A stretch of DNA of 51,779 bases, filler included, from Sphacelaria rigidula (taxonomy: Eukaryota): the NCBI GenBank assembly GCA_964200075.2. It is 4 parts of 4 records of this genome, joined end to end, with 100 filler letters (N's around TTAATTAATTAA, not from the genome) between each part and the next. Parts side by side here need not be neighbours in the genome. Positions count along the whole stretch, not along the records: positions 1 to 12,875 come from CAXNAA020003344.1; 3 more parts are not named here. The stretch is one strand, 5' to 3'. Under the pieces are notes generated by a model. The model saw only the letters and a program-made list of their open reading frames with translations. It had not been told where the DNA came from and did not search any database. This document shows, piece after piece, positions 5,110-50,974 of this stretch (the first letter of the stretch is position 1; each line of letters begins with the position of its first letter). The position numbers and the translations under genes are program-made.

Positions 5110-8100
5110 GTTGTTGTTGTTGTCGTTGTTGTTGTTGTCGTCGTCGTCGTTGTGTGCAAACCGATCGCGAATTGTTTGATGAGTGTGCTACGTCTCCGTC
5201 TCTGCACCTATACGTACTGAGTAGTCAAAAGTTCACCATTCCCTGTGCCGGCAATCTTGGTTGTGCCCCCGCCCGCCTCCCCTTCACTATCCTACACTCT
5301 CACCATCCCACACCTGCCCCTTCTCATCCCCGCCCCCTGCGCGGTACGCGAGCGCAGCAATGGCTTCGTAACCAACAACTATCGTCTAATGGCAGCATCT
5401 CTGGTGAAGATGGGAGCAGCGGACGGAGAAGTGAACCTGGATGCGTTCGCTTTTGACATCGAGCGCGTGATGGAACGCATCGGCTCCATGGAGGCCCAAC
5501 TGGACACCACCGCCGTAATTGACGAGGGGACCGGTCGGGTGTCATACGGAACTTCTGTAAACGTGGATCAAGAGGTGCGGGGGGGGGTGTACTCATGGTC
5601 TTGCATGTCATGATCATAATACCATCGACCTCGTATCCCTACAAAGCCGGGACGGAGAACGATGGGTTTTCGCCGCACCAGGCTCGCAATCGCCAACCGC
5701 GAAGCACCGTGATGCGTCCAGCGAGTCGCAGAAAGGGTGGGGGAGGAGGGGCGTACTCAGTTCTTACTTGCCTTGGTCATATGACCATTGACCACGCTCC
5801 CCGTCCGAGACGGAGCACTGTTCCTACTCCTAGAGACACCTACAACGTCTGGGCGCTCATTACGTTTTCTCCATACATCCCATGATAACCTTTTACATAT
5901 CTTGTCCCCTTCCTGTTTCGCCGTCTGTGACCACCATCTATCTCCTAGTGTAGCGATAGTTTTCTCGCTCCCATCTGGTGTATCGAACGATTTCATATGC
6001 CACTTTGATTTAGTTCCCACATTTCCTCCTCTAACACCTCCCGGTCCTCCTCGTACAGTTCATACTCTCCCACTTTATGAGGTCTACCCTGCATTTCCTT
6101 CTACAGGCGAAATTCTGTGCATTTACTTCCTTGCCCCCCGACTACTGGCGTATCTCCTCCTCTTTTCTGGCAGGTTCAGGTCCCCCACCCAAAATCGCAG
6201 TCTCGACTTGTTCACGTAATCCATTCAGCGGTGAGATTTTGTTCTCATCTCCATCCCTTTGCTCAACCCCCCGTGTATCTTGAGGTGCTCTTCCTCGTCT
6301 TCTTTTTTTGTTCGCGCTTGTTCCCCCCCTATTCCTATACTTTCGTTTACTTTCGTCTTGTACTCCCCACATTCACCTATGGACAGTATTTCGTCTTGGT
6401 TTCTTTCTATATTCTTTCATATTTTCTCGTCTACGCTATCCTACCTCATTCCGGCCTGCCCCTTCGTTTACTTTCTTTCATACAACCTTATCAACTATGG
6501 CGGGCAATATATCTCTTGGCATGTTCCTCGCGTAATGTTGCCATTTCAGTTTTCTCATGTCTCCATTTGTTCTGAGTGAGTACATTTTTCAAATCCGCTC
6601 TCGATACTGTGCAACTCGTCATTTTTTAGCAGTCAAATATTTTCTTGGCTGCTGTCGTCTGTACTGTTTCCAGCTTCTTTATCAACTTCGCGTTCCCTTT
6701 CCATACTTCTCCTGCATATTCTAGCTTCGGTAAAATCACATTCGTCAGAATACATATCTGAATCCTAGTATCGAGGCGGTACTGGGGAGGGGGGGGGGGG
6801 ACAGGGAATGAGTAGATGGTGATCTTTTCGTCAATGTTGTGTGGCAGTTTGCACCGAAAAAATGAATGCGAGGTGTTGCGGAGCTAGTAATGGGTTTTAG
6901 CGCTTTGACCTCCAGCATCGCTTCAGAACAGTTTCACCGACAGATAATCCAGGGGTTTGAATGTTCTTGACGAGGGGGCGTGGGGGCGTGCAGGTTTCCC
7001 GATTGTCACCGAATGCTCCCCAGATCAACCTTGCGTGTTTCAAGAGTTTGTTTAGGTCGGGCGAATGGCCTGGGGAGGGATCGTGTGACCATTTGAAAGT
7101 TCTGATTGGAATGGTCCTCAAGTTCCCCTTCAAATCGGCCAATAGCGCTCACACGTGGAGGTAAAGCTGCGTTTCATTATCTGGCCATCAACTATAGACA
7201 CACACGCACACACACAAGGGGGGTACTTTTGCTCTCTGCTCACTCTTCGCCGCTTACCCGTCCCCTCTGGTGTTGCTAACAGCTGCGCACTGTTGCGTAA
7301 CACGGAAGAGAGGTGGAACCAGAGTGAATGCGCCGTGTATAGCGGGGAGTATCCTGTTCTTTATCTGCCGCTGATGAAACAAAAAAAACAGTGTGTACTG
7401 TACACCAACATCACGGTGCCATAGAGCACGGCTTGAGATTATGTGACATGCAGCGTATCGTCAAAACGCGCAGGGGGTGTGCGAGCACGTCTTGAACATG
7501 CAGCGTATTATCAAAGCGTGCAGGAGGTGTGCGAGCACGTCTTGAACGTACCAAGATTGCCAAAGCAAGGCGGAGGGTATGTATGCTGCTTGAGTATATA
7601 GCAGCAGTAGTGGCAGCCAGCGTGCACCATTTACTTCGGCATACCAGTCTGTTCACTACTCAGCATGGAGGAACGTACACCCGCGTGGCTTGGCCAGAAA
7701 AAACAGGCATGGGTTCTCCTGAAGTCCCTTTTATGTGAACACTCAATGCCCACCAGTGCAGATGAATAGGCTTGTACGCGGCGAATATCTCCTCGACATT
7801 TCGTACGTTCTGATTTGATGTTTTTAATAGCAACTTCATAGTTAACTTTCTGTTTTTTCCATTCGTACACGACGGTAAGATATATATATATATATATTTA
7901 CATGTGTATATATATATATCTATGCTAGAGTTTCGGCGGCTTACGCCGCCACGCCGAATGGAACGAGTTTCAAGATACAGAGAACTGGCTGTGTTAACGT
8001 GTTTTTCGCGTGATCTGGTAAAATGAGAATGAGTGATTGCAGAGGGGGTGACCAGCCGCGGTGACAAGCTAAAGCGGCCAACAAACGACGAGGTGCGCGT

Positions 8101-11729: not shown

Positions 11730-12875
11730 TGTTGGTAAAATCGTGACTTCTGGAGAAAAATATGTATTATTGAGACCTTGGTCCGGAGAGACGGGTCGGA
11801 AAAGTGGAGTGAGCACGGCAGGTGAGCTCATGTCATCTACAAACAAGAAACTCTGGAAACCAAAGAACCAAAGACAAGTTCCGGAAACGTTCCGCAACCT
11901 CAGCAACGTTCTACATGGTTCCAGCAACGGAACTCGGACCAACGCTTTTCCTTACGTACCACAAAACGTTGGGTTGTTCCCCACACCACAAATATCATGC
12001 TCGGACTAATGCAGTATCCACAAAGAGTACTCCAACATAGGCTACAGAAAGGACCGCAAACATTCCTCGCAATTCTCACTTATGTGGCAGTTCAGCAACT
12101 TATAGATCGACAGTTCCGTTATTCAAATCGTCCAATCAGATGTTCTACGCAAATCAGTCGATACTACAGCCGCTATCACGAACACCCTCCCTTGGGGCTG
12201 TTGTATCTACCAAACCAAATATATATCAAAGAAAACAAATGACGACGCAGACTTCTACTTCTCATCTCTGGAGCCAAGGGCAAAATCACGGTGAACTTCA
12301 AAGCGATCTCTCGGCAGAGCCGTCGTGAGGATGTCCGCATGCTGTTCTTCGCTGGGAACATGCGTGATCTCAATCGCACCCTCCTCCGTCAAATTCCTAA
12401 GAAAGTGGTGCCTCACGTCATTGTGCTTACTCCTGCACGAGCTAAGCGGATTTTCTGCAAGTCCAATCGCACCACTGTTGTCCTCAAGTACCTTAATCTT
12501 ACGAGGCTTCACACTAGATCTCAAGAACTGAAGCATTCCGTTCACAAACAGGGCCTCCTTCACACCATCACCCATCGCAAGATACTCTGCTTCAGAAGTC
12601 GACTGCAAAACGCATTTCTGCGTCCTAGATATCCAAACTACAAGCATGGCAGCCACAAAAACCAACGCTCCCGCTAATTTACTACCGTCAGGGGCCTTGC
12701 TTGCAAAGTCGGCATCTACGTACACCAACGTGCCTACATTTACCGTACTGTCCTGCTTGAACTTCAGAGTTAGATGCGTCGTTTCCAGAAGATAATTCAG
12801 AATCTTCTGGGCTGCCTTCCAGTGGCTCTTCTTTGGCTCGTGAGAGTGCCTCGCCACCGCCCGCACAGCATTCGA
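11730..12875 (-). mobile_element. Ty1/Copia LTR retrotransposon, 3' end (RT C-terminus/RNase H, PPT, 3' LTR)
   Basis: ORF 12255-12866 has the Copia RNase H motifs YVDADFA, STSEAEYLA, EDNSGAI, RSKHNDVRHHFLR and QHADILT. A purine tract AAGGGAGGG is followed by TGTT at 12184. The putative ~455-bp LTR 11730-12184 ends ...ACCAACA. The element is cut by the contig end. Confidence 0.88.
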
Positions 12876-13015: not shown

Positions 13016-13128
13016 TAATGAGCGCCAGAATGTTGGAAGTGTCTCTAGTAGTAGTAGGAACGGTGCTCCGTCTCGAGAGAGATGCGTGGTCAACGGTCAA
13101 ATTACTAAGGCAAGCAGCGATGAGTACG
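13016..13128 (+). mobile_element. LINE family A 3' fragment
   Basis: taatgagcgccagaatgttggaagtgtctc...ggcaagcagcgatgagtacg, between two C-runs. Confidence 0.75.
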
Positions 13129-27204: not shown

Positions 27205-30200
27205 TCATGAGGGCATCGGCTGCACGCTCAGGGTGCATGTTGCTTTCTTGTCCATTCCCATGATGCCGTCGGCCATGATACGCAGAACCAAAGGAACGTG
27301 ACCGGGAGACTGATCAGGAGTCGGGAAGCGAAGGGTTGATTGGAAACCTTTGCGTCCCAGCGCTCCGACCTGTATGTGGTTTTAGGTGGTATGCAATTAG
27401 ACATTGACGACAGTTGGAAGGGTCTCGAGCCGAGCTGTTGGAAAAGAAACCGGAGGGTTGTGGTACTCTGCAGTATCTCCATTTCAAGGGTTGGACGCCA
27501 TCCTAGACAGAAATTCGCGCACTGTGTACCATGTTTGAGAGTGACACCGACCACGGGATGAACAATATTGCGTAGTTTTTGGGCCAATGACTACAGTACT
27601 TTTTTATGGCTGCAACATTTGTAACGCTATCGTAGCTTCATAACGTCATCCCGTGGAGCCCCACCGTCCTACTTGTTTCCAATGGTAGCTGCAAAATAAT
27701 CCACAGGTCAACAAAGTGCGGCGATCAATCAACCACGAGGTGGGCCCACGCGGAAGGCATACCGGTTCCGAGGCTTGCCGTTTCCGATAGACGTTGCGAA
27801 TATCGAACCCTCGAACAGTACAGTCTGAACCACAGGCAAGGCGGGGATACCCGACTGTTCAGTACAACAAAACAAAGAGCAGGCAGCCTCACCCTCTTGA
27901 GTGCTAACAGCTCTCCATCCTCCGTACCCAAGATCAGCCACCAGCTCAATTCTTTCGCCTTGGGGAATCGGGGTGTCCACAACGCCCCCCTGCTGTTCCA
28001 AGGGTTCGCAATGGTGACCTTTACCGTGGCTTCGCAGTCCGCTTCCTGCCCTACCTCCTCCTGGAGTATTCGTAAATAGAGTTCTCGTAAGGTTGACAAG
28101 ACAAGAATAACTGCGTTCATGCTAATAGCAACAGTAGAGGCGTCATCGTCAACTTTTCGATAGCGCCTACACTTGACGGTAAATGGGGACACAGCCGCTC
28201 GCAAATTGCTTACATTGGACCCTCCTCGAGCCGGCCGCGCAGTAAACGACACGTTTGAAATTGCTGGAACTGCCGCTAACGCCCGGATCGCTGCTGCCAC
28301 TTGACCCCCTCCACCTGCGGCACGAGAAAAGGACGTCGGGATTTTTTCTTCACCACTTGCAGAACCAAAAGGTATCGATGCCATCGGAATAGATCTCGAC
28401 GGTTGAGATGTCGAAGCCGTCATGCGACTCACTTCACAAAACTACTCCAACGTACCACGTCACATCACATGAGTCGACAAAAACTCGCTTGTAGGTTTCT
28501 TCATCACACCAGGACTCGGATCGGCACATGCCGCCTGCTTGTCGGCCATATATCCGTGAAAGAAGTTAGATGGGGATTTCCAAAATAACGTCCACATCCA
28601 GGTTCTTCCATTGTAACACATAGCCTCCAGTTGGCGCAACAGCGGCGGCAGGGTCACCCCACTCGTCACCAAGTACGCCGATTACGACAACGGGTTCGAG
28701 AAATCGGACTAATCTGCTGAAATAATAACGACGACGTCAGCAACAATACCTTGTCCTTGTGGACGTCTTTCTCTTCCACCACCATCGCTGGTGCTAAGCC
28801 CAGAACTTTCCAACAACTTTCTTGCCGAGGTTTCCCCGCGCAAGACGAGGTCTCGGAACGAAGAAGCGCCTTTTGCTCGAATGCGACCAGCTTGCGTAGG
28901 CCCCACCCCCGGTATCTGCAGCAACGAGTCTGTGTCGTGCCAGGCAGCCTGATGAGCAGAAAAAGCGGTTACCGCGCGGCAGCAACACACGCGCGGGGGG
29001 ACAAGGGCCAAACGATGCAGGGGTTATGGAGAGTTAGTTCATGCACTTGGAAAATTGAAATCCTCGGGAGAGCTTCGACCAACACAGCCGATGCTTTTGC
29101 GACTTCGAGTTCGTGAATACTATATGTCCTCACTGCCTAGTCACCTTGGTTGTACAGAGGCGCTTCGATGGGAGAGCGAATGCGCGTACACGATGACGTC
29201 ACCTCGGGTGTCGTCTTCATCGAGCAAGGAACTACCCGATATCCCATACCGATTCGGGCCATGAGGATCTAGCAGGCCCTACTCTGTTGAATGGCGTGCG
29301 AATCGGCATGATCTGCGTTTTGTACTGAATTTATCTCGGAGTGGCCACCAGCAAACCGAACTTGCTTGCCTGTACGACCATTTGGTGCAGTGAGAGCAGC
29401 CCGATTGTAGTGTCGAGCAGCCCGAAACCAGCAGCGATGTCCAGCATGGCGTTCAGTACACGAACGGCCTGGTCCAGTACGCTACGCGTATCGGTCACGT
29501 AGTCCGAGATGGGGAGTGGCACACGCCCAAAGTGGGCCTAAAGAAAGCTCAGATTTAAACAACGGGGAGCGGGGGTGGGTGGGCACCATACAAGAAGTAT
29601 GATCAAAATGGAACAAAACAATCTGGTAGAGTAAGGTAAGCATGCCATGGACACGTGGTTTGCTGGGATGTATAATATGCCCTGACCCCTGTGTCTTTGG
29701 GGGAAACTCAAGAGCTGTGTTGACTAGCCAGACCATCCGGGCTCCGAATTATCAAGTGTGGCGAACGTGTACGCGGTAGGTCATCGTTTCCTGCTCTAGG
29801 GAATCACGGGAGTATTCAAGTATCGAAAAGGCAGCAGAAGGACAAAGAGGAAGCACAAGCACAAGGAAAACAGCACACGCAATGGCGGAGAAAGATACTG
29901 AGCACAACTTGAAGAGCAACGGACAGAGAAGAATAGCTCAGGGCAACGTATGGCCTTTAAGGCCTTCGTACCTGTAGCAGAAGGTATGCCTTGACGTGCG
30001 GACTATCCAACTCGAAACTCCCTACCGGCCACGGAAGCTTTTTCGAAAGTTCTCCGTTGAGACCATCTTCGTTGTGTCTTACTGGTAGCTCCGCAAATTC
30101 CTGGACACGCGGTATACGAGCAACGCGGAAAGAGGACCAAACCAATTCAAGCTTGTGCACGCTGGGGTGTCAGATTATGGTAGTGTGCCCCCAATTTTCC

Positions 30201-33200
30201 CGCATATGGCTGTAGGCTATCGCTATCGGAAGCGAAAGAGACGTAGAATTGCAGTAGTCATGTGCGGAACTCCTCCTACTGTTCTCTACGTGAAACCTCC
30301 GGGTTGCGTGAAGGCCCCAGAGAAACAGGCCCTCCACCCATATCGCATCGATCCAGGCACGAGTGTGTGGACTGAGAGACTGTACGTTGTCCTCGTGTCA
30401 GTATACCACACCAAGCTGTCCTGTCCCATATTAACCCCCTAGGGACGCAAACAGTGGGTCTCTCAGGTCTCAGATATTGCGATGGAAATTTGCTGGTACT
30501 ATCCAAAAATAATGGCGGAGACAGCGGTTCATGTACCTGAGCGTCAGCCAGTAGGCGGCACAAGTGCTCCACGGTGGTAAGTTCCACTTGCTCGTCGCCC
30601 AAGGAGGACTGGAATAGCTTCATCGTGCGGTAGTCCAGGTAGTAACGGCCGGCTATCATGGCCAACGGGGTGGCGTGTATCTCCTACAGCCGAAAATCAA
30701 AGTAGTGACAATGTCAATGAAAACATGATGAAGTACAGCAGAAACTATAGCAGGGATCAATCCTGATAGATGAACGAAATCCATTCAGAGAAGCCGGAAA
30801 ATATAGCATGTCACTGTGGCCTCCTTTACGCACGCCGTAACAACAGCCAACTCACCTCGTCTCCGGACCCCGCCGGGCCTCCTCCGCCCATCTCTATACA
30901 GCCGGCATCATGAAGGTCTAGCAGGGTGGAATCTACCAGTCCCAGCAGATGCTCCTGGGATTGAAGACAACAAAAAATTACCGCAAATTGAGGGGGACGA
31001 ACACCTCAGTGGAGTATAAACTAGACAGACCGACTGTACATGAATGCTGTTGCTGAATATTGCATGCTTGAGCATTACAGAAAAAAAAACATCTAGAAGG
31101 TAGCCATTGAGGTATTTTCCTGACGAATGATCTAGAAAACAGCAGAATGAACAACATGGTGTGTGCGCCTGCAGCATCTCCAAATGGGCTGGTGGCTAAA
31201 GCACAGCGGCACATGCTCCAGTGTGTGCGCACCTGCACGCCTTCGGTGGACGCATCCTCCAGGCCGTAGTATGAAGGGTTCGCCAGTAGCCTCACAAAGT
31301 AGAAAGTCCACGTAAGATAGTCCATGGCATCTTTCCTCGACCTTCACGTTGTGGGCAGACACGATGAATTGAATGATTGCATTCGCATTGGAGCCAGTCG
31401 TCATCGATTGTTCGGTTTCCATGACTACGCGCCTGGCATGCCAGCAGCTCAACGTCAAGCAATGTACGCGTACGAAAAACACGAACCACGTGCAAGCGAT
31501 GATTCATTCATTGGCTCTCCTAGCGGAACGCGTAATGACGCGACGATTTGAGTTGACAAAAATTCCACGAGCATCAACGGATAGCGGGACTGACAATCCA
31601 AAGCTTCACAAGAAATGGCAGGTAGGTACCGCAGGGCAACAGGGGGGGGTCTCACGAGACTTTAGATTCGTCCCCAGGTGTTGAGGGTTGGGGCCATGAA
31701 TTTCCACCATCATATACCGTTAAGTTTGGCACAGCAATGGATCCACACCTGATGGCACCCCCCGCGCACTCTGCCGATAGATGGTTGTGCAAGGCCCCTG
31801 CAAGCTTAGACTCCACGGGGAACGGCTCGTACAAAAACTTTTTGAAGAAGTTCTTCTTGGGTTCGTGCACCAATATGCAGGCCACCGCGTGGTCGTCAAA
31901 CTGGGGTCGACCGGCGCGTCCGATCATCTGACGAACAGCAGCAGCAGCAGCAGCAGCAATTTATTGTTGCGTAATCATATGAATTGCCGCGCAAATATTT
32001 TTCTGGGGGTGACGGGGCATGGATGAAGCAAACAGGCATGTCTTCTACGCATTAAACTCGCCCTGAAAGGCACGACGTTCATGGAGCATTCCTACAAGTG
32101 AGTGTAACATTCTTTGCAGGCGACATGAATCAGTACGATATTTTTGCCCCAACCAAACAACATCGAAGGACGTGTGCCGCGCACAAGCGTGCCGAACATC
32201 GCGTCTTTCCCCCCGGCCGAGAGTCATTCGGCAGTGGCCTGTGGGGTGCCTCCCATTTTTCCTTGAGTCGGTGCTACATCTTAGCCTGGCGTTTTTCTTG
32301 GGGTTTCTCCCTTTGCCTTATTTTCCTTCATTTCACTCTGTTGATGTCTCCTTTCCTTCCACCTCCCTCTATTCTCAAGTCATTGTCCCATAGCGAGCAT
32401 CGTCATTTACTTTTCTTCACCTTCTGATGTGCCTACTTTGTGACCGCGGTAGGGTTCGTGGCGAATCTGCTCATGTTCAACAATCAGCCATTCATGCACG
32501 GTCTGAGTGCGTTGTCGGGCGTCTGATTGATTGATTGATTGATTGTCGCATTTTAACTGACCCCTCCGGGGTCCAGCCGTGGTGTCATGATAGATGTACC
32601 CAACAAAAACGAAACTCAAACACGCTCTGAGGGAAAAAAAGAAAAGGAACTAACCTGTAGAAGGTCGGTGATGGGGAAGTCGACATACCGCCCGCTCTTG
32701 CCATCGAAGAATTCCGTCCCTTTCACCACCACCAAGTGAGCCGGGAAGTTGACGCCCCACGCCAGGGTGGACGTGCATACAAGCACCTGCAATTTGACGA
32801 GGAAGCGAAACGAACGAGGTCAGGGCCGTCATCGGCTACTTCACACATGATGTCGAACGGACGCGTCGCCGATGTAGACAGTCCCCAGCGGTAAGACATA
32901 CGACGGGCTTTGCCGTTGTATCTTCCGCATTGTGCATCACCTGTGCCATCCTTTCATGTGAGTTGAAGAACGGGATATGCGACGATATTGATTGGTGAAG
33001 CACCCAGCTTTCGGCCTGCCCCGCTTGTATGAACGTACAAGAGGCGTTTCCGTCCACATTGCTGCCCTTACCTGGTACAATCCGTGAACCGTGGATCAGC
33101 AAACAACATCAAGCAGGGCACCTGACTTGCTATGACGGAACATAGGTCTAGAGTATCCAACACCTAGACTACATCGATTACCAAACACCAACTTGTTCAT

Positions 33201-36200
33201 GACAAAAATAAAGCACGACCGACTGCGAGCAATGTCATAGTTGACCTGGATCTTCCCTTGCTCGAAGAGGGTCTCCACGAGGGTTCGGTCTCCCTCCGCT
33301 AGCCCCGCGTGATGAATCCCGATCCCAAACGCCAGAGTATGCTGTAACGCCTGGTCCCTGTTATCGGGGTCGAACACAAAGCGGCAAAGCAGCCATCCAA
33401 AACAGTTATTGGTGAGCAGACAGCGCGGTACAAGAGCAAATAAAACAGCAATCGTCGTAGTTGCACGACCCGAGAATTCAAGGACACAAGCCATGGAGCA
33501 CAACACTTCACCGAAAGCCACACGGTCCTCCCGCTAGTACATACCGTCGCCGAAGCATTGAGGTAGATTCGGAGAAGGCGCGACTTGGATGGCTTGATAA
33601 TGCTATCTTCTCCCTACATGGGTCTGAATTTTGAAGGCAAGAGTGCTTTGGAACTGACGTGTGGCACGTACGTCGTGGACCTGTAAAGGAAATTGCGGCA
33701 TTTTTCACAACGCCACTTTTGAACTACAACATTCCAATAAAGACAGAGGCAGAAACTCATTTTCTAGGGGCAACCATGAGCAAAGAGTGTACACTAGGCA
33801 GTACGCTGCGTGTACAGGGCCCTCCTCCGCCGTACAGCAACGGAAGAGGGTAACGGCATCTGCGGACCTGGTAACCAGAGTAATGGCCACACGACTCCGA
33901 GGACTGCTTGGTTTGGGGTCGATCAGTCGAGAAATACGTTGGTGCGCAGTTAGAGTCTTGTTAGTATTGTTTCGGTGTCACTTGTTTTTGTACACGTCGC
34001 AAGGGTGGCCCTGGTTTCGCTATTTCTTCCATGGATCGGAGACGTGGATAAGCACAGATGCGACCGCCCGAGCGAGCTGCTGGGACGGTCAAGTGTACTT
34101 GAAATAAATTCCAGCGAACTGATCACTATATTTGTATACATTTATATATGTATGTATATTTCACATGGAGATGTACGGTGCAGAGTGTTAACCGATGAAA
34201 ATCCGGATCCATGAAGATTCGTTAGTGGTGCAGTCGTTCAACAGCATTTCCGCCCGCCTGTGGCATTCTGAAATTTTGAAATCAAGCTGAATGCGGCGAA
34301 GATTGGGCAACACAGAACGGACACACAGCTGAATTGCGGTGGCTCCAGAGGAGAATTGAAACAATCATCTCGCCTGACAGACTGGGACGCGTCCTGCGCT
34401 TCTTCCTCAGGCATGCGGACGAACCGCCGCGGGTTGGCGTCCCTGGTGCAAAGGCTGATAAGATCCAACGCTGTCAACCTCGTTTGACGACGAGATGCCA
34501 CGAAAACCAAGACGGGTTTATCCGGACTGCGCCCAGCACAACATGCGAAAAAACAGCAGCAAGACAGAAGAGCAAGAGACGGGCAGATGAAGCAACAAAA
34601 TTTGAAGTTGATAGCTCGCCGGGACTCAGCGTGCACAGCACTGGTATACGAAATGCATACCGGGGTATTTGGCGTCATCGTCGGACGAGACGAAAAGCCC
34701 GGTGGGAGTAGCTGCGAGCAAGTGGGTCGACAACGGCGCAGATCGAATATGACGCTCAAGTATGGGCGAAAATTTCACGTTGCGGCATCGGACGCGAAGA
34801 CGCCGGATGAATGCTACGGGTATCATCCCTGAGGAAATGGATACCCCCTACAGACGTTCGACACTCCCCAGATGGGCACCAAACTCCTCTGGCATCACTG
34901 ATATCTCGGCAAAGCTAGGAAAGAACGTCGAGGGTTACAAATAAACGAGCACGCGAAACCATGTTAGGTCACCTGTGCTCCATTATTGCGGCGTACGTTG
35001 GCTTGTTCATGGTTGCCATGCGGGGGCAGTAGTGCTTGCCTGGATATCCCTGCCGAAACCGACAATACCACGAACGGTCACAAGTCCACCAAACAAGGAA
35101 GATGCGCAAAACGCATCGTATAGTTCATAGGAAATGGGTGAGGCTGTTTGGCGTGACGTCTCTCAAATTAATGAAAATGTCCTCATGACATGAGTAGAAA
35201 TCAGACTCAGATTGGTGCTCATACACAGCACAAAAGTGCCGCATTGAAACAAACCATCAATTTGTGTAGCGCTGACCCAAGCGGCGTAAGTGCACGAGAG
35301 AGCTTCAGCTCGACCGTAATCGTAGACCAAGTAACCGTCAAGCATGTTCGTCCATGCCTTGTACGTCGCAGCTGTGTTATACGAATGCGCCCTGCTTTCC
35401 ATGAAGCACGTGAAGCATACCTGGATGTGAACCTCGCACGGGATAGGCCGTACGCTAGGTCGGAAGTTATACAAGCCAGTGTCCTTCACTCCTAGCCAGT
35501 CCGAGAGGTCGCGTGGGTTAGCAAGGGCAGTGCTCAGACCCACGAACCGCACCTGTACATCAGCCGGCGACGTGAACGGCAACACGGGTCCAAGTACTAT
35601 TGTAACCCGCGAAACGATACGATGAACACACGACGAAGGCGGGGTACTCTGTAGTGTGATACCCCGTGATCACGGGGATGGAAGATCCCCAACTAGCCGG
35701 TACGGTACGAACATCGTCCTTTTGCACAAACGACGACCTCCCACAACGGAAAACTACACTGGAGCACATGAGACGGGGCTCTACCGCGGGGTTATACTTG
35801 TTCGCTTTTAGCAACTTTTTCAACCCCTTGACCGCAACTCCTCGTCAGATTGCTCAACGTTGCCCAGGCAAGAATTGGGATCAAATTGGTGTGAAATAAC
35901 ACGCCTGCCCGCATCGACAGGTGGATCCTGAGCACTGATATGGAGACGAGTGCGCGAGAATGCCTACCGGTCTAGGCAAGTCAGCAAGGGAGGTCTCGAT
36001 ATATTTTGGCGTCGAAAACAATCACACAGCACGACCTCATGGGTTTTATCGCGCTGCTGCAAGTGGTGCTGAGCGCTCGCTAATGTTACGTACAGCGGGG
36101 ATACGTAAACAGCGTATATCCATATTGTACATCTTTGATAGTTACGTGCCCCCCGCCTTGGTACTGTCGGAGTAGGACGTGTACTTCTCCGGTTTGTATC

Positions 36201-38488
36201 ATGTTTATTGCGCTGTACGGGACTCGAATGGCAAAAGCCTTCGCTGAAAAACCTCTTTGACAGTTTATTCTATATTTCTTGTCGCGACAACTCACGTCAT
36301 TCAATCAAGTCTTCTATTTCCAGTATCGGTTTGCATCAGCACATCAGTAACCGGGACTATGAGCTTACTAACAGCTGTAAACACGGCGTTTTACAAATCG
36401 GGGATGGAAACCCGGAGAAATAAAAATCTTCGTGTCCACACCAAATCTTCGAAGTATGCTTTCATTTCTTCACTTGCTGGTAGCTATTGACAACTACTAC
36501 ACGCTATACAAATTTGAATTTCGATAACCGAAATGTCGGGGTCCTAGGCGAACAACCATTTTGGGGGGATTTTAGGTGTCCAATCGGACCCCGACATTTC
36601 GGTTATTGAAATCCAATTTTTCATGGCGTGTAGTAGTTGTCAACAGCTGCCAGCAAGTGAAGAAAGAAATGGAAGCATACTTCAAGGATTTGGTGTGGAT
36701 ACGGAGATTCTAATTCTCCGGATTTTCATCTTCAATAAAAGATCCATCCCCGATTTGTAAAATCCCGTGTTTGTACACGAGGGATACGGGAGTGACAAAA
36801 GAGGACGTGTTTTCGCGAACACGTATTACCATCGCTACTTCAAACAAATCGAATGCAGTTTTCCAAATCTAAAATATGAACGAAAGAATGAGGATATTGC
36901 TAGACGTATCCTTGGATCCAAATGTTGAAAACCACCGCACCTGACGCTGGCCGCGACTCTTCTGCGTGGCGGCAGAAGCCGCAATGTAGCGCATCCTGCT
37001 CACGATGACCTCCAGCACCGGCCCTCGGTCCTCTCCCAGTAAGTGGATTTCGTCCATGATCTGACCAAAAAAGGAAAGTCCGCAATCGACGTGATTTATG
37101 GTATTGACTTCCGGCTGCATGGGGGTGTCTACCCAGCCATATGATTGCACACAGGGTACCGTACTTGTTCTTGATGCAGCCTCCCCTCTTCCAACGCGCG
37201 GTACTGGAGTCCCAAGCCCCGAGCCCAACTCAACTCGCCAAATCTATCAGCCATGACAGCTATTTCCCGTCACACATGTTTACAACTACACCGCAGGGGT
37301 CCACTGCAACGCGTGACACACGCTACCAAACGAACGAGGGAACCTCTCGGGCATCGCACCACTAGCCCCGTGTCCCTAACGTAGTCCCTCGACTTCCAGC
37401 CTCGCGTTACGCCGTCCCACTTTTCCGGGGTGGTCACGATAATTGTAGCTCTCCTGCGCAAACAAATCGCATGCACGAATAGAGGGTGTCATTGGTTAGT
37501 AATTATGATGCTACGCACACGACCTCAAGTGGATTGTTACCACCGGGACCTTCGGGATGCACAGACGCCAGAGTGGGGTTTGCAAACGAACCGTTCTGTA
37601 TTCGAGCATGCTTCCAAGCCACCGCAGGACATTGTGTGCATCGCACTTTGCATACGAATGTGCTGAGTAACTCCTACCGTGATGAAGGATATATTGGCAA
37701 AACTATCGAGGGGTACATTCCTTCTGAAACGTTCCTGTTCACATGTACTTCACGCAATTTTCCATGTAATGTTTTCCATTTAATCGACCGCATGCCTCAC
37801 TTTAGAGCGTCCGTATCCGGCGTGTGGTCTCCGGTGAGCTCCAGCACGCTCATGCCCATCTTTCTGCCGAACTTTTCACGCCAGTCCTTCAACCTTTCCC
37901 TTGCAAGTGCCTTGAGCGGTGCCACGTACACAGCCTGGCAGCATCCCCAACGAAAGAATCGGCGTTTGTTCTTGAATACCGCTCGTGATGCAACACAACT
38001 TGTTCCGTGCGCGGAAGAGATGGGCAAGTAAGCTACTTTGCAACTCAACTCACCACACCTTCGCACGCATATTTCAGTGATTACCGTGACAATAGTGTAA
38101 AGGTATGTAAGCCTGCGTCCACCAGATTGTGGCGTTCATTTTTCAGCCACAGCCTGTCCACACATTACGACCTTTGACGCAATACTAAGCATGACTTCCA
38201 ATAGCACGCCACCGCATATCTCCACCCTCCAAATTGATTTCTATAGTCACGTTACAACGAACGGCATCGGGCTAACAGCCTGACAGCCTGCCCTGGTCTC
38301 TACCACACGCCTGCACCCTCAAATCTGGGCTCGCCTTTGCCCCTGCGTGTTCGTTGAGCATCCTCATGATGGCTATCTCTGCGACCGCTGTCTTTCCCGA
38401 ACCCGTGGGTGCGCCCAGCAGAACGCTCTCGTCGCTGTGGTATAGGACGTGGAATAGCTGGGTCTGTATAGGGTTGAAGTGCTCGTAC
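27205..38488 (-). CDS. ASCC3: Activating signal cointegrator 1 complex subunit 3 (Ski2-like DExH helicase, ASCC3/Slh1); second helicase cassette and C-terminal Sec63 domain, 19 exons, 5' part outside contig
   Basis: Exons 38335-38488, 37801-37934, 37360-37453, 36941-37060, 35421-35552, 34973-35049, 34374-34526, 33246-33357, 32655-32786, 31749-31927, 31233-31341, 30856-30954, 30537-30683, 29972-30100, 29370-29537, 28750-28948, 28214-28314, 27893-28060, 27205-27369 (TGA). Motifs: [130 protein letters not shown]. The intact DEIH box and KHYCPRM motif favour ASCC3 over Brr2. Confidence 0.93.
32524..32620 (-). mobile_element. Non-LTR retroelement 3' end with (AATC)n tail
   Basis: Reverse complement reads cacggctggaccccggaggggtcagttaaaatgcgacaatcaatcaatc. 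Confidence 0.6.
36378..36774. mobile_element. Foldback MITE in ASCC3 intron
   Basis: aaacacggcgttttacaaatcggggatgga / tccatccccgatttgtaaaatcccgtgttt; the arms are imperfectly complementary over ~170 bp. Confidence 0.75.
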
Positions 38489-38812
38489 CTGCGATAATTG
38501 CCAGGGTAACAACGGAAACAAATCAGGACAAATACAGTCAAACTGTTCAGAAATGGTGCACGGTTAGGACAGATCAACTCGTGAGTCAACTCAAAGTCAT
38601 CATCTCGACGAATACATCATACGGTTCGTACATCATTTGTAATTCACACAGCCAGTCCTTCTTCATGACTCACGACGTGAATGGCTTGTACATGTACGCC
38701 ATGTGTGACAAGTTCAACGTGAGCGCCCGTACATGTTTCCCACCTTCGGATGAATGCGGGACCTACATAAGTCAACAAGGTTAATTAATCTGAAGTCATG
38801 GGGCCTGAACCA

Positions 38813-43929: not shown

Positions 43930-46641
43930 CTGTAGGTGGGTGCACTTCGCGAGGATCGCCTTCAGAGCGCGCTTGCTCTTGGTCCTGAGGTCATCGCTGC
44001 TGTCGTCATGGATCATGCACGCCTGTCGGAGTACAGTAGGACCAAAAGAAGAAAGGAGGATCAAGATCTGCTTTCTCTCTGTGTGTGTATGCTTGTGATT
44101 TGTGACTAACATTATTGATTGATTGAATGATTGATTATTTCACATTAGCTGATGGCAAAAACAACAACAGCAACAGCAGCAGCAGCAACAACAACAACAA
44201 CAACAAGTCATACGGGGTCTTCATTATCATGTATATGGTTGTTGTTAATAGCTGTGCGGTCGTTGTGTGTTCCTATGAACGGGGATAGGGGGGGCGTACT
44301 CATTTGTTGCTTGCCTTAGTCGTTTGACCATTGACCACGCATCCCTTTCGAGACGGAGCACCGTTCCTACTCCTAATAGAGACACCTCCAACATGCTGGC
44401 GCTCATTACTTTCCTTTTAACGGGGATAGGGGGGCAATCCGTAGGATCCACGGTGGTGCTGGATCTACGAGACAACAGTCGTGAGGCATTCAACAGCCGA
44501 TCATCGAAATTGAGGATGGATATTTTCATTGAGAATGAGAACGCCGAGGATTAAAGTCTTCATATCTACGCCAATCTTCGAACTATGGGTCCATTTCTTC
44601 ACCTACTGGTAGCTATTGACAAGTACTACAGGTCATACAAGTTTGGATTTCGATAACCGAAATGTTGAGGTCCTATGATAGCTGAAAAACCAATTTCGAG
44701 GAATTTCAGCGATCCGAATACTCCGCGTTCCCACCCTGAATGAGAAGCTACATCCTCAATTTCGATGATCGGCTGTTATCTGCGTTGATATGTCTCGACC
44801 GTTTACACGCGGGGGGGGGGGAGGGGTGGTTACTATTCCAATTGGCGTGTCGGAGACGTACGTGAGTTTCTGATTTGATGTTTGAGATGAGGCCATGCAC
44901 ATACGTTCCATTCTTCCCTTTGCCCACAGTACCTTATTGTACAACAATACTATACTCTTCTACCCGAACCTGATGGGCTGGCAGCCATGTATGTCCTTTG
45001 ATCGACCTTCACACTCGTGAAAAAAAAGTGATTCCCTGGATCACTGACTATGAAACATTGTGGACTCCACACGCAAGCTGCTTTGGGCCAAGAAAGCGGG
45101 GAACGGTATCTATCGATTGATCTATCCGCCTACCGTGGTTCGTTACCCTTGGCCATCACCCCTGCTGCTGCTGCTGCTGCTGTTTTGTTGTCGTGACTAT
45201 ACACAGCGCATTACGTACCCGCTTGTCCAAAACAGTCACCGAAAAAGAGGGAGATTAGGAAATGTGAAAAAAACGTGTCTCTCGATGTGGTGTCTGTGAA
45301 TGAACGCTGTTCTTTTCTTCTTCTTCACACTTTTGAACCAGTTAAAGTGCAACAATCAATCAATCAATCAGTCACACTTTTGAACCCCTCCCCTTCCTCG
45401 GGGACGAGTCCGTGGCCTCAAGGGATTGATTAACTCGTCTCTTCCCCGGTACGCTGCCTTGCATCTTGGTCTCGCAGATTGGATCATGACTAACACTTCC
45501 GCCTTGCATTTTGGTCTCGCAGATTGGATCATGACCAATACTCCCGCCTCGCATTTTGGTCTTGCGGATTGGATCATGACCAACACTCCCGCCTTGCATT
45601 TTGGTCTCGCGGATTGGATCATGATCAGCACTCCCGCACCGCGTCCACGCTTGTCAAACCAACTCCGCGAACTACTTTTCTTAATTCAATCACGACTTGC
45701 GCTTTCGACAGTGTAAAATCACATAGCTTCCAAGAAACAACACCCAAGGCATCGGGAATCGCACCCACGTTCTCTCCCCCTCATGGTGACAGTCGGACCA
45801 TTTAAATTTACACCATGGGGGTGCAGCGGCAATTGTTATTGTTAATGTTGTTGCCACCTTCACTAGGCTATATATATATACATGTATGCTACTGCAAAAA
45901 AAGACGTCAAGACGAACATCACCTAGTTTTCACGGTATTTTAACTATAAATTGACACACGTATTTTTGTCATCAGCTCATCATGAGTACACACACACGAT
46001 AAATTGTACATGACTACGATACACCTACTGCAGTTGAGCCAATTATGTGAGTAAGCGCTCTCTGCAAAAAGGAAGAAGTCACCCCCGCCGGTTTTACGCC
46101 AAGGAGGCAGCGGAAGTCAAATCCTCGTGCTCGAAAGGCTTTTATTTTATTTTTCGGGTGGTATACAGTATTGCAGTGTTATTCCCATCGAACAATGTGA
46201 TGTACATTTATTGTTTTGGTGGGTTTTGGAGAAAGGGAAGACAATATAGTGACAAAACGAAGACAGGAAACAGTACAGCTATATCGACCACAACCATAAT
46301 AATAACGCACTACAGCTTACTGTAGAATATAAGTGCGTCTGCTGCTCCCCTCCCCTCCCTCACCAGCAAGTGCCTCAGTACGTCGCCCTCTGCCAGTGCT
46401 CGAGCATGGTCTGGCGTGTGTCTCCCGATCTGTCCCAACGACCACGCACACGCTGCCTTGATGTGGTCCTCAGGCTCTGCAACCAACGCCTATCGTCGGG
46501 GGGGAGGGGGGGGGGGGGGGGGAGCAGGGGTAGAAGAGTTGTTGGGGGGAAGGAGAGAAGAGAGGGGCTTTTTTTTTTAATGAAAAAGAAAAGTTTAGGG
46601 NNNNNNNNNNCGCGCCCGGGGGCTGGTGTCCGCGGGTGGGG

Positions 46642-50548: not shown

Positions 50549-50630
50549 CGTACTCGTTTGTTGCTTGCCTTAGTCGTTTGATCATTGATCACGCATCCCT
50601 TTCGAGATGAAGCATAGTTACTACTCCTAA
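50549..50630 (-). mobile_element. LINE family A 3' fragment
   Basis: cgtactcgtttgttgcttgccttagtcgtttgatcattgatcacgcatcccttt..., with G-rich flanks. Confidence 0.7.
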
Positions 50631-50974
50631 CTAACTAACTAACGGGGGGGGGGGGAGCTAGACGAAACAATACTGGTGGATGATAACAAAGTCAACATGA
50701 ACGTAGGTATACTTAACTTACTGGAGGAGCACCTTGCAACCGGGGCGATGAGCTGTCCATAACATATCTGTATTTACTCACTATGATCAATACTTCCAGA
50801 TTGCTCTTGCACATCTCGTTGTCCTGTACCCCAGTATACTGATGCGTGTGTGAGTTCGTAACCTTGCTGACCGTGAGCTGTAAATGAACGAGAAAATCAT
50901 CAAGAGCTGGCTAGCTTAATGATCGTATGTTTTTCGAAAAACTTCCGCTACCTACCTACCTACCTACCTACCTA

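Follow-up and report, generated by a model that had tools for sequence, protein, structure and literature searches.

In mammalian L1, the homopolymer tail of the RNA pairs with a nicked complementary tract and the TSD starts with the tail base. The members of stringent LINE/SINE pairs, among them UnaL2, SART1, and the green-algal RTEX, have in common a 3' stem-loop and a terminal repeat (PMC3747384). The green-algal RTEX tails listed in that source are (CA)n, (CAA)n, (CCAT)n, (ACAATG)n, and (CTTGTAA)n, and none of those listed is (C)n. Targeted insertion at (C)n repeats has been described for the Chlamys Penelope-like elements (PMC8557442).

Elements with C-rich ends have been annotated in Ectocarpus. 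According to a supplementary table, RTEX-1_Ec32 has a single EN-RT ORF, a (C)n 3' end, a length of 5867/5511 bp, and a C-rich TSD (PMC12477816 Suppl. 3, rows 2–4), and RTEX-2_Ec32 has (C)n termini/TSD (PMC12477816 Suppl. 3). Two non-autonomous elements are given in the same source, RTEX-N1_Ec32 (607/604 bp), which can be tandem and has a 60-bp 3' end that is 83% like that of RTEX-1/-2, and RTEX-N2_Ec32 (188 bp). The 3' end of RTE-1/-2_Ec32 is (CAA)n (PMC12477816 Suppl. 3, rows 8–9). The main text of this source is silent on C-rich or homopolymer ends, and no hairpin or stem is mentioned in five of its supplements (PMC12477816).

Here we analysed a window of 51,779 nucleotides from Sphacelaria rigidula (GCA_964200075.2). 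The window is the whole stretch of DNA under study and consists of four contigs of one assembly joined by spacers, the first being G000:C3344. The assembly is a fragmented short-read assembly of 244 Mb in 27,214 contigs.

Results

Copies in the window

An earlier note on this DNA had reported nine copies on all four contigs, six of family A and three of family B, and all of these were recovered in the window (Table 1). It had also claimed a fixed 3' end, TGAGT(ACR) followed by CCC, which we observed at 7 of the 8 visible 3' ends. The exception is the copy at 50549, which ends CGAGTACG-CCTCCCC and has both a CGA in place of the stop codon and a broken C run. The longest copy has a degraded frame that matches residues 1022–1358 of the intact 1360-aa relative P0001 (tblastn), and this region covers the last ~340 codons of an EN-RT ORF, including the CCHC knuckle region. 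Because TGA closes this degraded frame, the 3' UTR is 5 nt. The proposal that the fixed end is the stop codon of ORF2 therefore stands with regard to TGA, 5 nt, and then C's, but the label ORF2 is wrong since there is a single EN-RT ORF. At the 5' junction of the copy at 50549, the (GTTA)n filler (50628–50643) repeats the first bases of the element, and a similar duplicated 5' start was seen in one copy elsewhere in the genome (L134). This suggests template jumps.

Three other features were observed in the window. A separate MITE-like repeat with 61-bp terminal inverted arms and high depth in other runs occurs at 44492–44777 and 36420–36756. By eye, a frame at 12255–12875 (-) resembles a Copia-type RNase H region, and exon-like frames with long introns at about 27700–38600 (-) resemble a Ski2/Brr2-type helicase.

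Table 1. Positions in the window of family A and family B copies and of the parts discussed in the text.
Feature	Position	Strand
Family A, 64-nt module-sized copy	1652-1715	-
C9 tail of the family B copy at 5588	5579-5587	-
5'-truncated, non-coding family B copy in head-to-tail nesting after the family A copy at 5752	5588-5739	-
C-rich tail/TSD of the family A copy at 5752, also the 5' flank of the family B copy at 5588	5735-5751	-
Family A copy, longest in the window, 5'-truncated, degraded (stops, frameshifts)	5752-6782	-
Family A stop codon TGA (5757-5759) and 5-nt 3' UTR	5752-5759	-
Family A ~67-nt 3' RNA module, within the last 20 codons, common to family B	5752-5818	-
5'-junction C tract of the family A copy at 5752 (left TSD region)	6784-6800	-
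Family A, 113-nt copy flanked by C tracts	13016-13128	+
Family B, 43-nt copy preceded by C18	26034-26076	+
Right copy of the perfect 16-nt TSD of the family A copy at 44295, C6 first	44278-44293	-
Family A, 122-nt copy, on contig C3347	44295-44416	-
Left copy of the perfect 16-nt TSD of the family A copy at 44295	44419-44434	-
Family B, 79-nt copy with end TGAGT + C16	49625-49703	-
Family A, copy of 83 nt with CGA in place of the stop and (GTTA)n filler at its 5' junction	50549-50631	-
Module-sized copy of family A preceded by C11, with its 3' end outside the window	51716/51722-51779	+

Genome-wide 3' ends, flanking tracts, and TSDs

An initial search with a query that stopped short of the terminus gave 30 loci, and 26 of the 28 loci whose end was visible had a C-rich continuation. 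An exact 22-mer ending in GAGTAC, the family A 3' end, had 3663 genomic matches (reversed control, 0), of which 2973 (81%) continued N-CCC and only one continued N-AAA. A poly(A) tail was therefore rejected for family A, in agreement with the earlier note. The corresponding 21-mer for family B had 694 genomic matches. For flank counts, the listed family A places were taken in contig order up to place 99 and, with five at contig starts and also place 100 left out, gave a sample of 94, from which L195 was excluded owing to its inverted structure, and the family B sample was the first 30 listed places. A run of C4 or more was present no further than 12 nt from the 3' end in 81/93 A copies and 27/30 B copies, and G4 or more followed the 3' end in none of either sample (0/93 and 0/30). 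The other end is C-rich as well, as had been proposed: C4 or more lay at most 22 nt from the 5' junction in 56/76 A copies against a background of 6.5% (G4 or more, 3/76) and, with full-length references, before the 5' junction in 23/29 B copies. The same ends were found at 5 of 5 related loci from other public assemblies. In 13/79 A copies (one of these a doubtful case), the 45 nt upstream contained a motif match to another A or B end, and in many copies the tail was interrupted, with the C run broken by other bases. In L195 (G000:C470:14645-14666), two element ends face each other with a flank motif in common, an arrangement resembling 5'-inversion or twin-priming.

TSDs were detected in 30 of 74 usable A copies compared with 3.5 expected from mismatched flank pairs; in the other 44 the TSD was not above threshold. 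With family B, TSDs in 2/29 copies (about 1 expected) were not above chance. A look for empty sites in four other runs, whose coverage of the unique flanks was slight, gave none. The TSDs of family A begin with the C tract and extend approximately 5–15 nt past it. Among 28 anchored TSDs, the 3' tract exceeded the target tract in 17, matched it in one, and fell short of it in 10. At clean short targets of 3–5 C's, the C-rich 3' tail reached 7–14 nt, with changes of 3 to 7, 3 to 14, 3 to 14, and 5 to 8 (L131, L146, L148, and L177); the short-target anchors of L150, L158, L179, and L183 look mis-assigned and were set aside. Three copies (L011, L110, and L134) are without a C tail although a C-rich tract adjoins, which indicates that C pairing is not obligatory. 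Together, the C-first TSDs and the gain of C's at short targets indicate that C's are supplied by the element, which also targets C tracts, so that both halves of the earlier proposal of poly(C) tailing and/or C/G-tract targeting are borne out. The fixed 3' end, variable 5' truncation, and TSDs of variable length likewise agree with its reading of 5'-truncated non-LTR retrotransposition. In L110 (G000:C35:4191-4212), and more weakly in L112, filler of TTAGGG, which we take to be a telomere-like motif, lies between the TSD and the 5' end of the element, as if the target end had been extended before joining.

Family A is very likely an RTE-X-type LINE

The RT domain (PF00078) was identified in a family A copy from this genome (L051), and APE endonuclease motifs are present in the longer copies (Pfam 9.5e-05, below the cut-off). 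The intact relatives P0001 and L259 carry PF03372 (EN) and PF00078 (RT) in one protein; P0001 is 72% identical to the RT stretch of this genome and L259 is 88% identical to P0001. An APE endonuclease N-terminal to RT in one polyprotein is the arrangement of an APE-type non-LTR retrotransposon. Among intact proteins, the nearest each consist of one EN-RT-CCHC ORF (1328–1360 aa), and their last residues are those of family A. The named homologs of the family A RT are from Ectocarpus, and two homolog clusters of the protein hold Ectocarpus members, one with an identical terminal peptide. In an RT tree of unnamed homologs, the brown-algal clade had a support of 1.0. The (CAA)n 3' end of the Ectocarpus RTE clade (RTE-1/-2_Ec32) is not that of family A, in which 81% of ends are N-CCC. 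Family A is very likely an RTE-X-type LINE with one ORF, an assignment made by correspondence rather than by the tree. Upstream of the ORF is a 5' UTR of about 1.3–1.8 kb with 63-bp tandem repeats. ORF size and this upstream region together give a full length of about 5.4–5.9 kb, which is an estimate from separate degraded pieces as no intact copy was found in this genome.

The 63-bp repeat array of the 5' UTR can be seen in L233 (909–1790) and L226, and L233 also has a tRNA-like insert near 1200–1290 that received no ARAGORN call. L259 is a near-complete C-tailed element inside a GTDB MAG. No relatives on viral contigs were found among 69 candidates. A second autonomous family in this genome, sought with the C-terminus of the other Ectocarpus-type protein, was rejected because the 20 loci examined out of 150 matches led to family A ends alone.

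Family B is non-coding

The earlier note had spoken of two LINE families. This does not hold for family B, which is without EN or RT, is about 570 bp in length, and has a protein match only in its last 57 nt. Full-length B measures approximately 550–570 nt, with a fixed 5' end in 5/30 copies, and its longest ATG frame (42–124 aa) is not common to the copies. The likeness between B and A begins at GTGCTC, 66 nt before the end of A; the last ~55–66 nt of B are ~81% like the LINE 3' end, and B showed no similarity to the 5' region of A. The 5' end of full-length B is a ~50-nt direct repeat of its own segment just before the tail. The lengths of the 30 copies cluster near 92–103, 217–219, 285–306, and 550–570 nt, and the group of 92–103 nt starts at the second copy of the repeat; these two arrangements were noted in L205, L214, L219, L225, and L208. 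Classical SINEs have a head derived from tRNA, 5S, or 7SL with a Pol III promoter. In B, a ribozyme or tRNA head received no support, as Rfam gave no match near the gathering score (6 loci) and ARAGORN no gene (2 loci), a test that a degenerate head could escape. From these sequence features we conclude that B is a non-autonomous LINE partner that shares the 3' end and tail of the LINE.

Module-sized copies of family A

Of the 79 A copies with a visible 5' flank, 48 are 56–71 nt long, 14 are shorter, and 17 are longer, a fraction of module-sized copies that may be inflated because copies that are short and young are favoured both by assembly from short reads and by the selection of exact matches. 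These 56–71-nt copies start at the 5' edge of the module. Across the genome, exact 22-mers had 2797 matches immediately within the module edge and 455 immediately beyond it. Depth fell 2.7–3.9-fold at the same edge in contigs from four other runs (three studies); loose ends there were G-rich and many joints were head-to-tail units of ~70 nt. A step at one position is unexplained by assembly or exact-match bias. The short copies were less diverged than the long ones (1.3 versus 3.3 mismatches). They had the same majority bases as the long ones at 40 positions with no diagnostic change, and we therefore rejected a separate subfamily of short copies. A size class at the module edge was absent from the 30 copies of B. 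Most family A templates appear to end at the 5' edge of the module, hence the ~65-nt class, either because templates are trimmed to the module or because RT drops off there.

A stem-loop in the coding region and a sister family

The module has a hairpin (H1), a bulged stem-loop (H2), and a possible closing stem. In an alignment of A, B, and two sister types, 97.9% of H2 cells were paired with 2 pairs changed on both sides, slid controls were at most 57% paired, and the covariation score was 0.331 compared with 0.202 ± 0.030 for shuffled alignments, a signal that comes from about two independent lineage changes. RNAalifold yielded the same H2 fold, and the pairing is kept across A, B, and the sister types while the amino acids differ. 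Single-sequence folding z-scores of the module were unremarkable (–1.5 to +1.4). The closing stem, in which the module ends are paired, had a probability of 0.84–1.0 in isolated A and B modules; it was weak in the sister families (0.58 and 0.13), was gone when 60 upstream bases were added, and had no covariation. The base after the paired module ends is G in 75/92 A copies and A in 21/30 B copies. We therefore predict a 3' signal in the form of a stem-loop that is supported by covariation and falls within the ORF's final 20 codons.

A profile search of GTDB revealed a sister family, ~50% identical in RT, on eukaryote-looking contigs within MAGs. Its copies stop right after the homologous codons, keep the module, and end TGAGTAT-(ATT)n, and by eye 3/8 copies have TSDs starting in A/T. 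The retained module, (ATT)n end, and A/T-first TSDs indicate that tail and target switch together. In one GTDB 'Nitrospirales' MAG (L261–L285), LINE copies are numerous on contigs of megabase size, which suggests contamination by a eukaryotic host.

Discussion

We propose that family A is a brown-algal RTE-X-type LINE with an RT signal encoded in the module, that B is mobilized in trans, and that both insert by TPRT at C/G tracts in a manner that mirrors L1, a reading to which we assign a probability of roughly 0.75. The RT-binding signal would be the structured ~67-nt module, and its overlap with the last 20 codons would be why family A has no real 3' UTR. B would be mobilized through the module that it has in common with A. 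The endonuclease would nick the G-rich strand within or next to a C/G tract, pairing would follow between the 3'-G end and the C run behind GUAC(G/A) on the RNA, RT would then copy the RNA, and a second nick would follow ~5–15 nt past the tract. The G-strand nick, rC:dG pairing, and trans-mobilization of B are inferred from established TPRT biology, and rC:dG priming fits the TSD polarity. The mechanism put forward in the earlier note is probably right. The C run on the RNA would most likely stem from the C-rich tail/TSD of the donor copy itself, reached by read-through and with some slippage, and not from a poly(C) polymerase, a source we favour because tails are often interrupted and the sister tail looks templated. 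Each insertion would leave a new C tract, so that copies nest.

An untemplated oligo(C) tail, added for example by a nucleotidyltransferase acting on a tRNA-like closed module and then priming on G tracts, would also account for the C's supplied by the element at short targets, and in isolated A and B modules the ends are predicted to pair (probability 0.84–1.0) and are followed by an unpaired G/A and then the C's. However, interrupted tails are unlike a pure polymerase product, the sister has a templated-looking (ATT)n behind the same module, and the closing stem lacks covariation, is weak in the sisters, and vanishes with 60 upstream bases, so that we consider this source unlikely. We give slightly less weight still to target preference alone, in which GUACG is the end of the RNA, C/G tracts are selected by the endonuclease, and slippage of RT on the primer or later expansion accounts for the extra C's. 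The three tail-less copies and the 10/28 TSDs with a 3' tract shorter than the target tract fit with this, but targets of 3 C's gained 4–11 C's on the 3' side alone, and later homopolymer expansion is unlikely as it should not be one-sided.

The tracts and the short class could also be artefacts of two-colour poly(G) calls or assembly breaks. The assembly is fragmented and from short reads, runs of G37 and G50 adjoin gaps, and for 14/93 copies of the sample a contig end is no more than 45 nt away. Copies that are both long and young are probably too few in the assembly. Strict strand polarity (C4 in 81/93, G4 in 0), TSDs in unique sequence, the same ends at 5/5 loci of other public assemblies, the same depth step in four other runs, and independent annotation in the long-read Ectocarpus genome (PMC12477816) largely refute this idea and we regard it as highly improbable. 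A further reading, which we hold only tentatively, extends the proposed C/G-tract TPRT: the module could be a promoter-less minimal retroposon, with RNA processed by trimming or cleavage down to the module, bound by protein and with its ends paired, plus C run as the dominant template and a switchable tail and target, (ATT)n versus (C)n. It is possible, with similar caution, that RNA from short intronic copies is among the templates and that the module is conserved in brown algae and an unrelated marine eukaryote. If this is true, a ~75-nt tag would suffice for a compact RT to insert an RNA at G/C tracts.

The ~65-nt copies, which number in the thousands, delimit a minimal cis signal and may escape repeat annotation. 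Because insertion duplicates and extends the tract, some of the C/G tracts within introns of brown algae could be due to these copies.

The earlier note regarded such elements as possibly undescribed, yet (C)n 3' ends and C-rich TSDs were already annotated for Ectocarpus RTE-X in a 2025 supplement (PMC12477816). The headline trait is therefore known at the annotation level, in what is very likely the same lineage. As described there, RTEX-1/-2_Ec32 resemble family A in having a single EN-RT ORF, a length of 5.5–5.9 kb, a (C)n end, and a C-rich TSD, whereas priming, a 3' stem-loop, and a ~65-nt class find no mention in its searched text and supplements (PMC12477816). By description, RTEX-N1 is like B (~570 bp) in being non-coding, C-flanked, and often tandem with a LINE 3' end in common; compared with the entries for RTEX-N1/-N2, the ~50-nt direct repeat and the lack of similarity to the A 5' region are features of B. 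We found no papers on rC:dG priming, a coding-region module, a tail switch, or a 65-nt class in a search that did not extend to Repbase, Dfam, or subscription journals, and the coding-region stem-loop, coupled tail/target switch, and predominance of ~65-nt module copies look new.

As a comparison, the Chlamys Penelope-like elements are like family A in targeting (C)n but differ in their GIY-YIG endonuclease and pseudo-LTRs and belong to another retroelement class (PMC8557442). In contrast to the stringent-type pairs (PMC3747384), the stem-loop of A and B is within coding sequence and the terminal repeat is a C homopolymer. The natural tail-swap pair, C versus ATT on one stem-loop, makes it testable whether LINE target choice lies with the endonuclease or with RNA-primer pairing. 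Compared with mammalian L1, family A has C/G in place of A/T, one ORF, and a 3' module that is specific, where L1 has relaxed recognition of poly(A). The supplementary table on Ectocarpus gave no mechanism, and the junction data presented here are the C/G mirror of L1 priming with poly(A) at T tracts.
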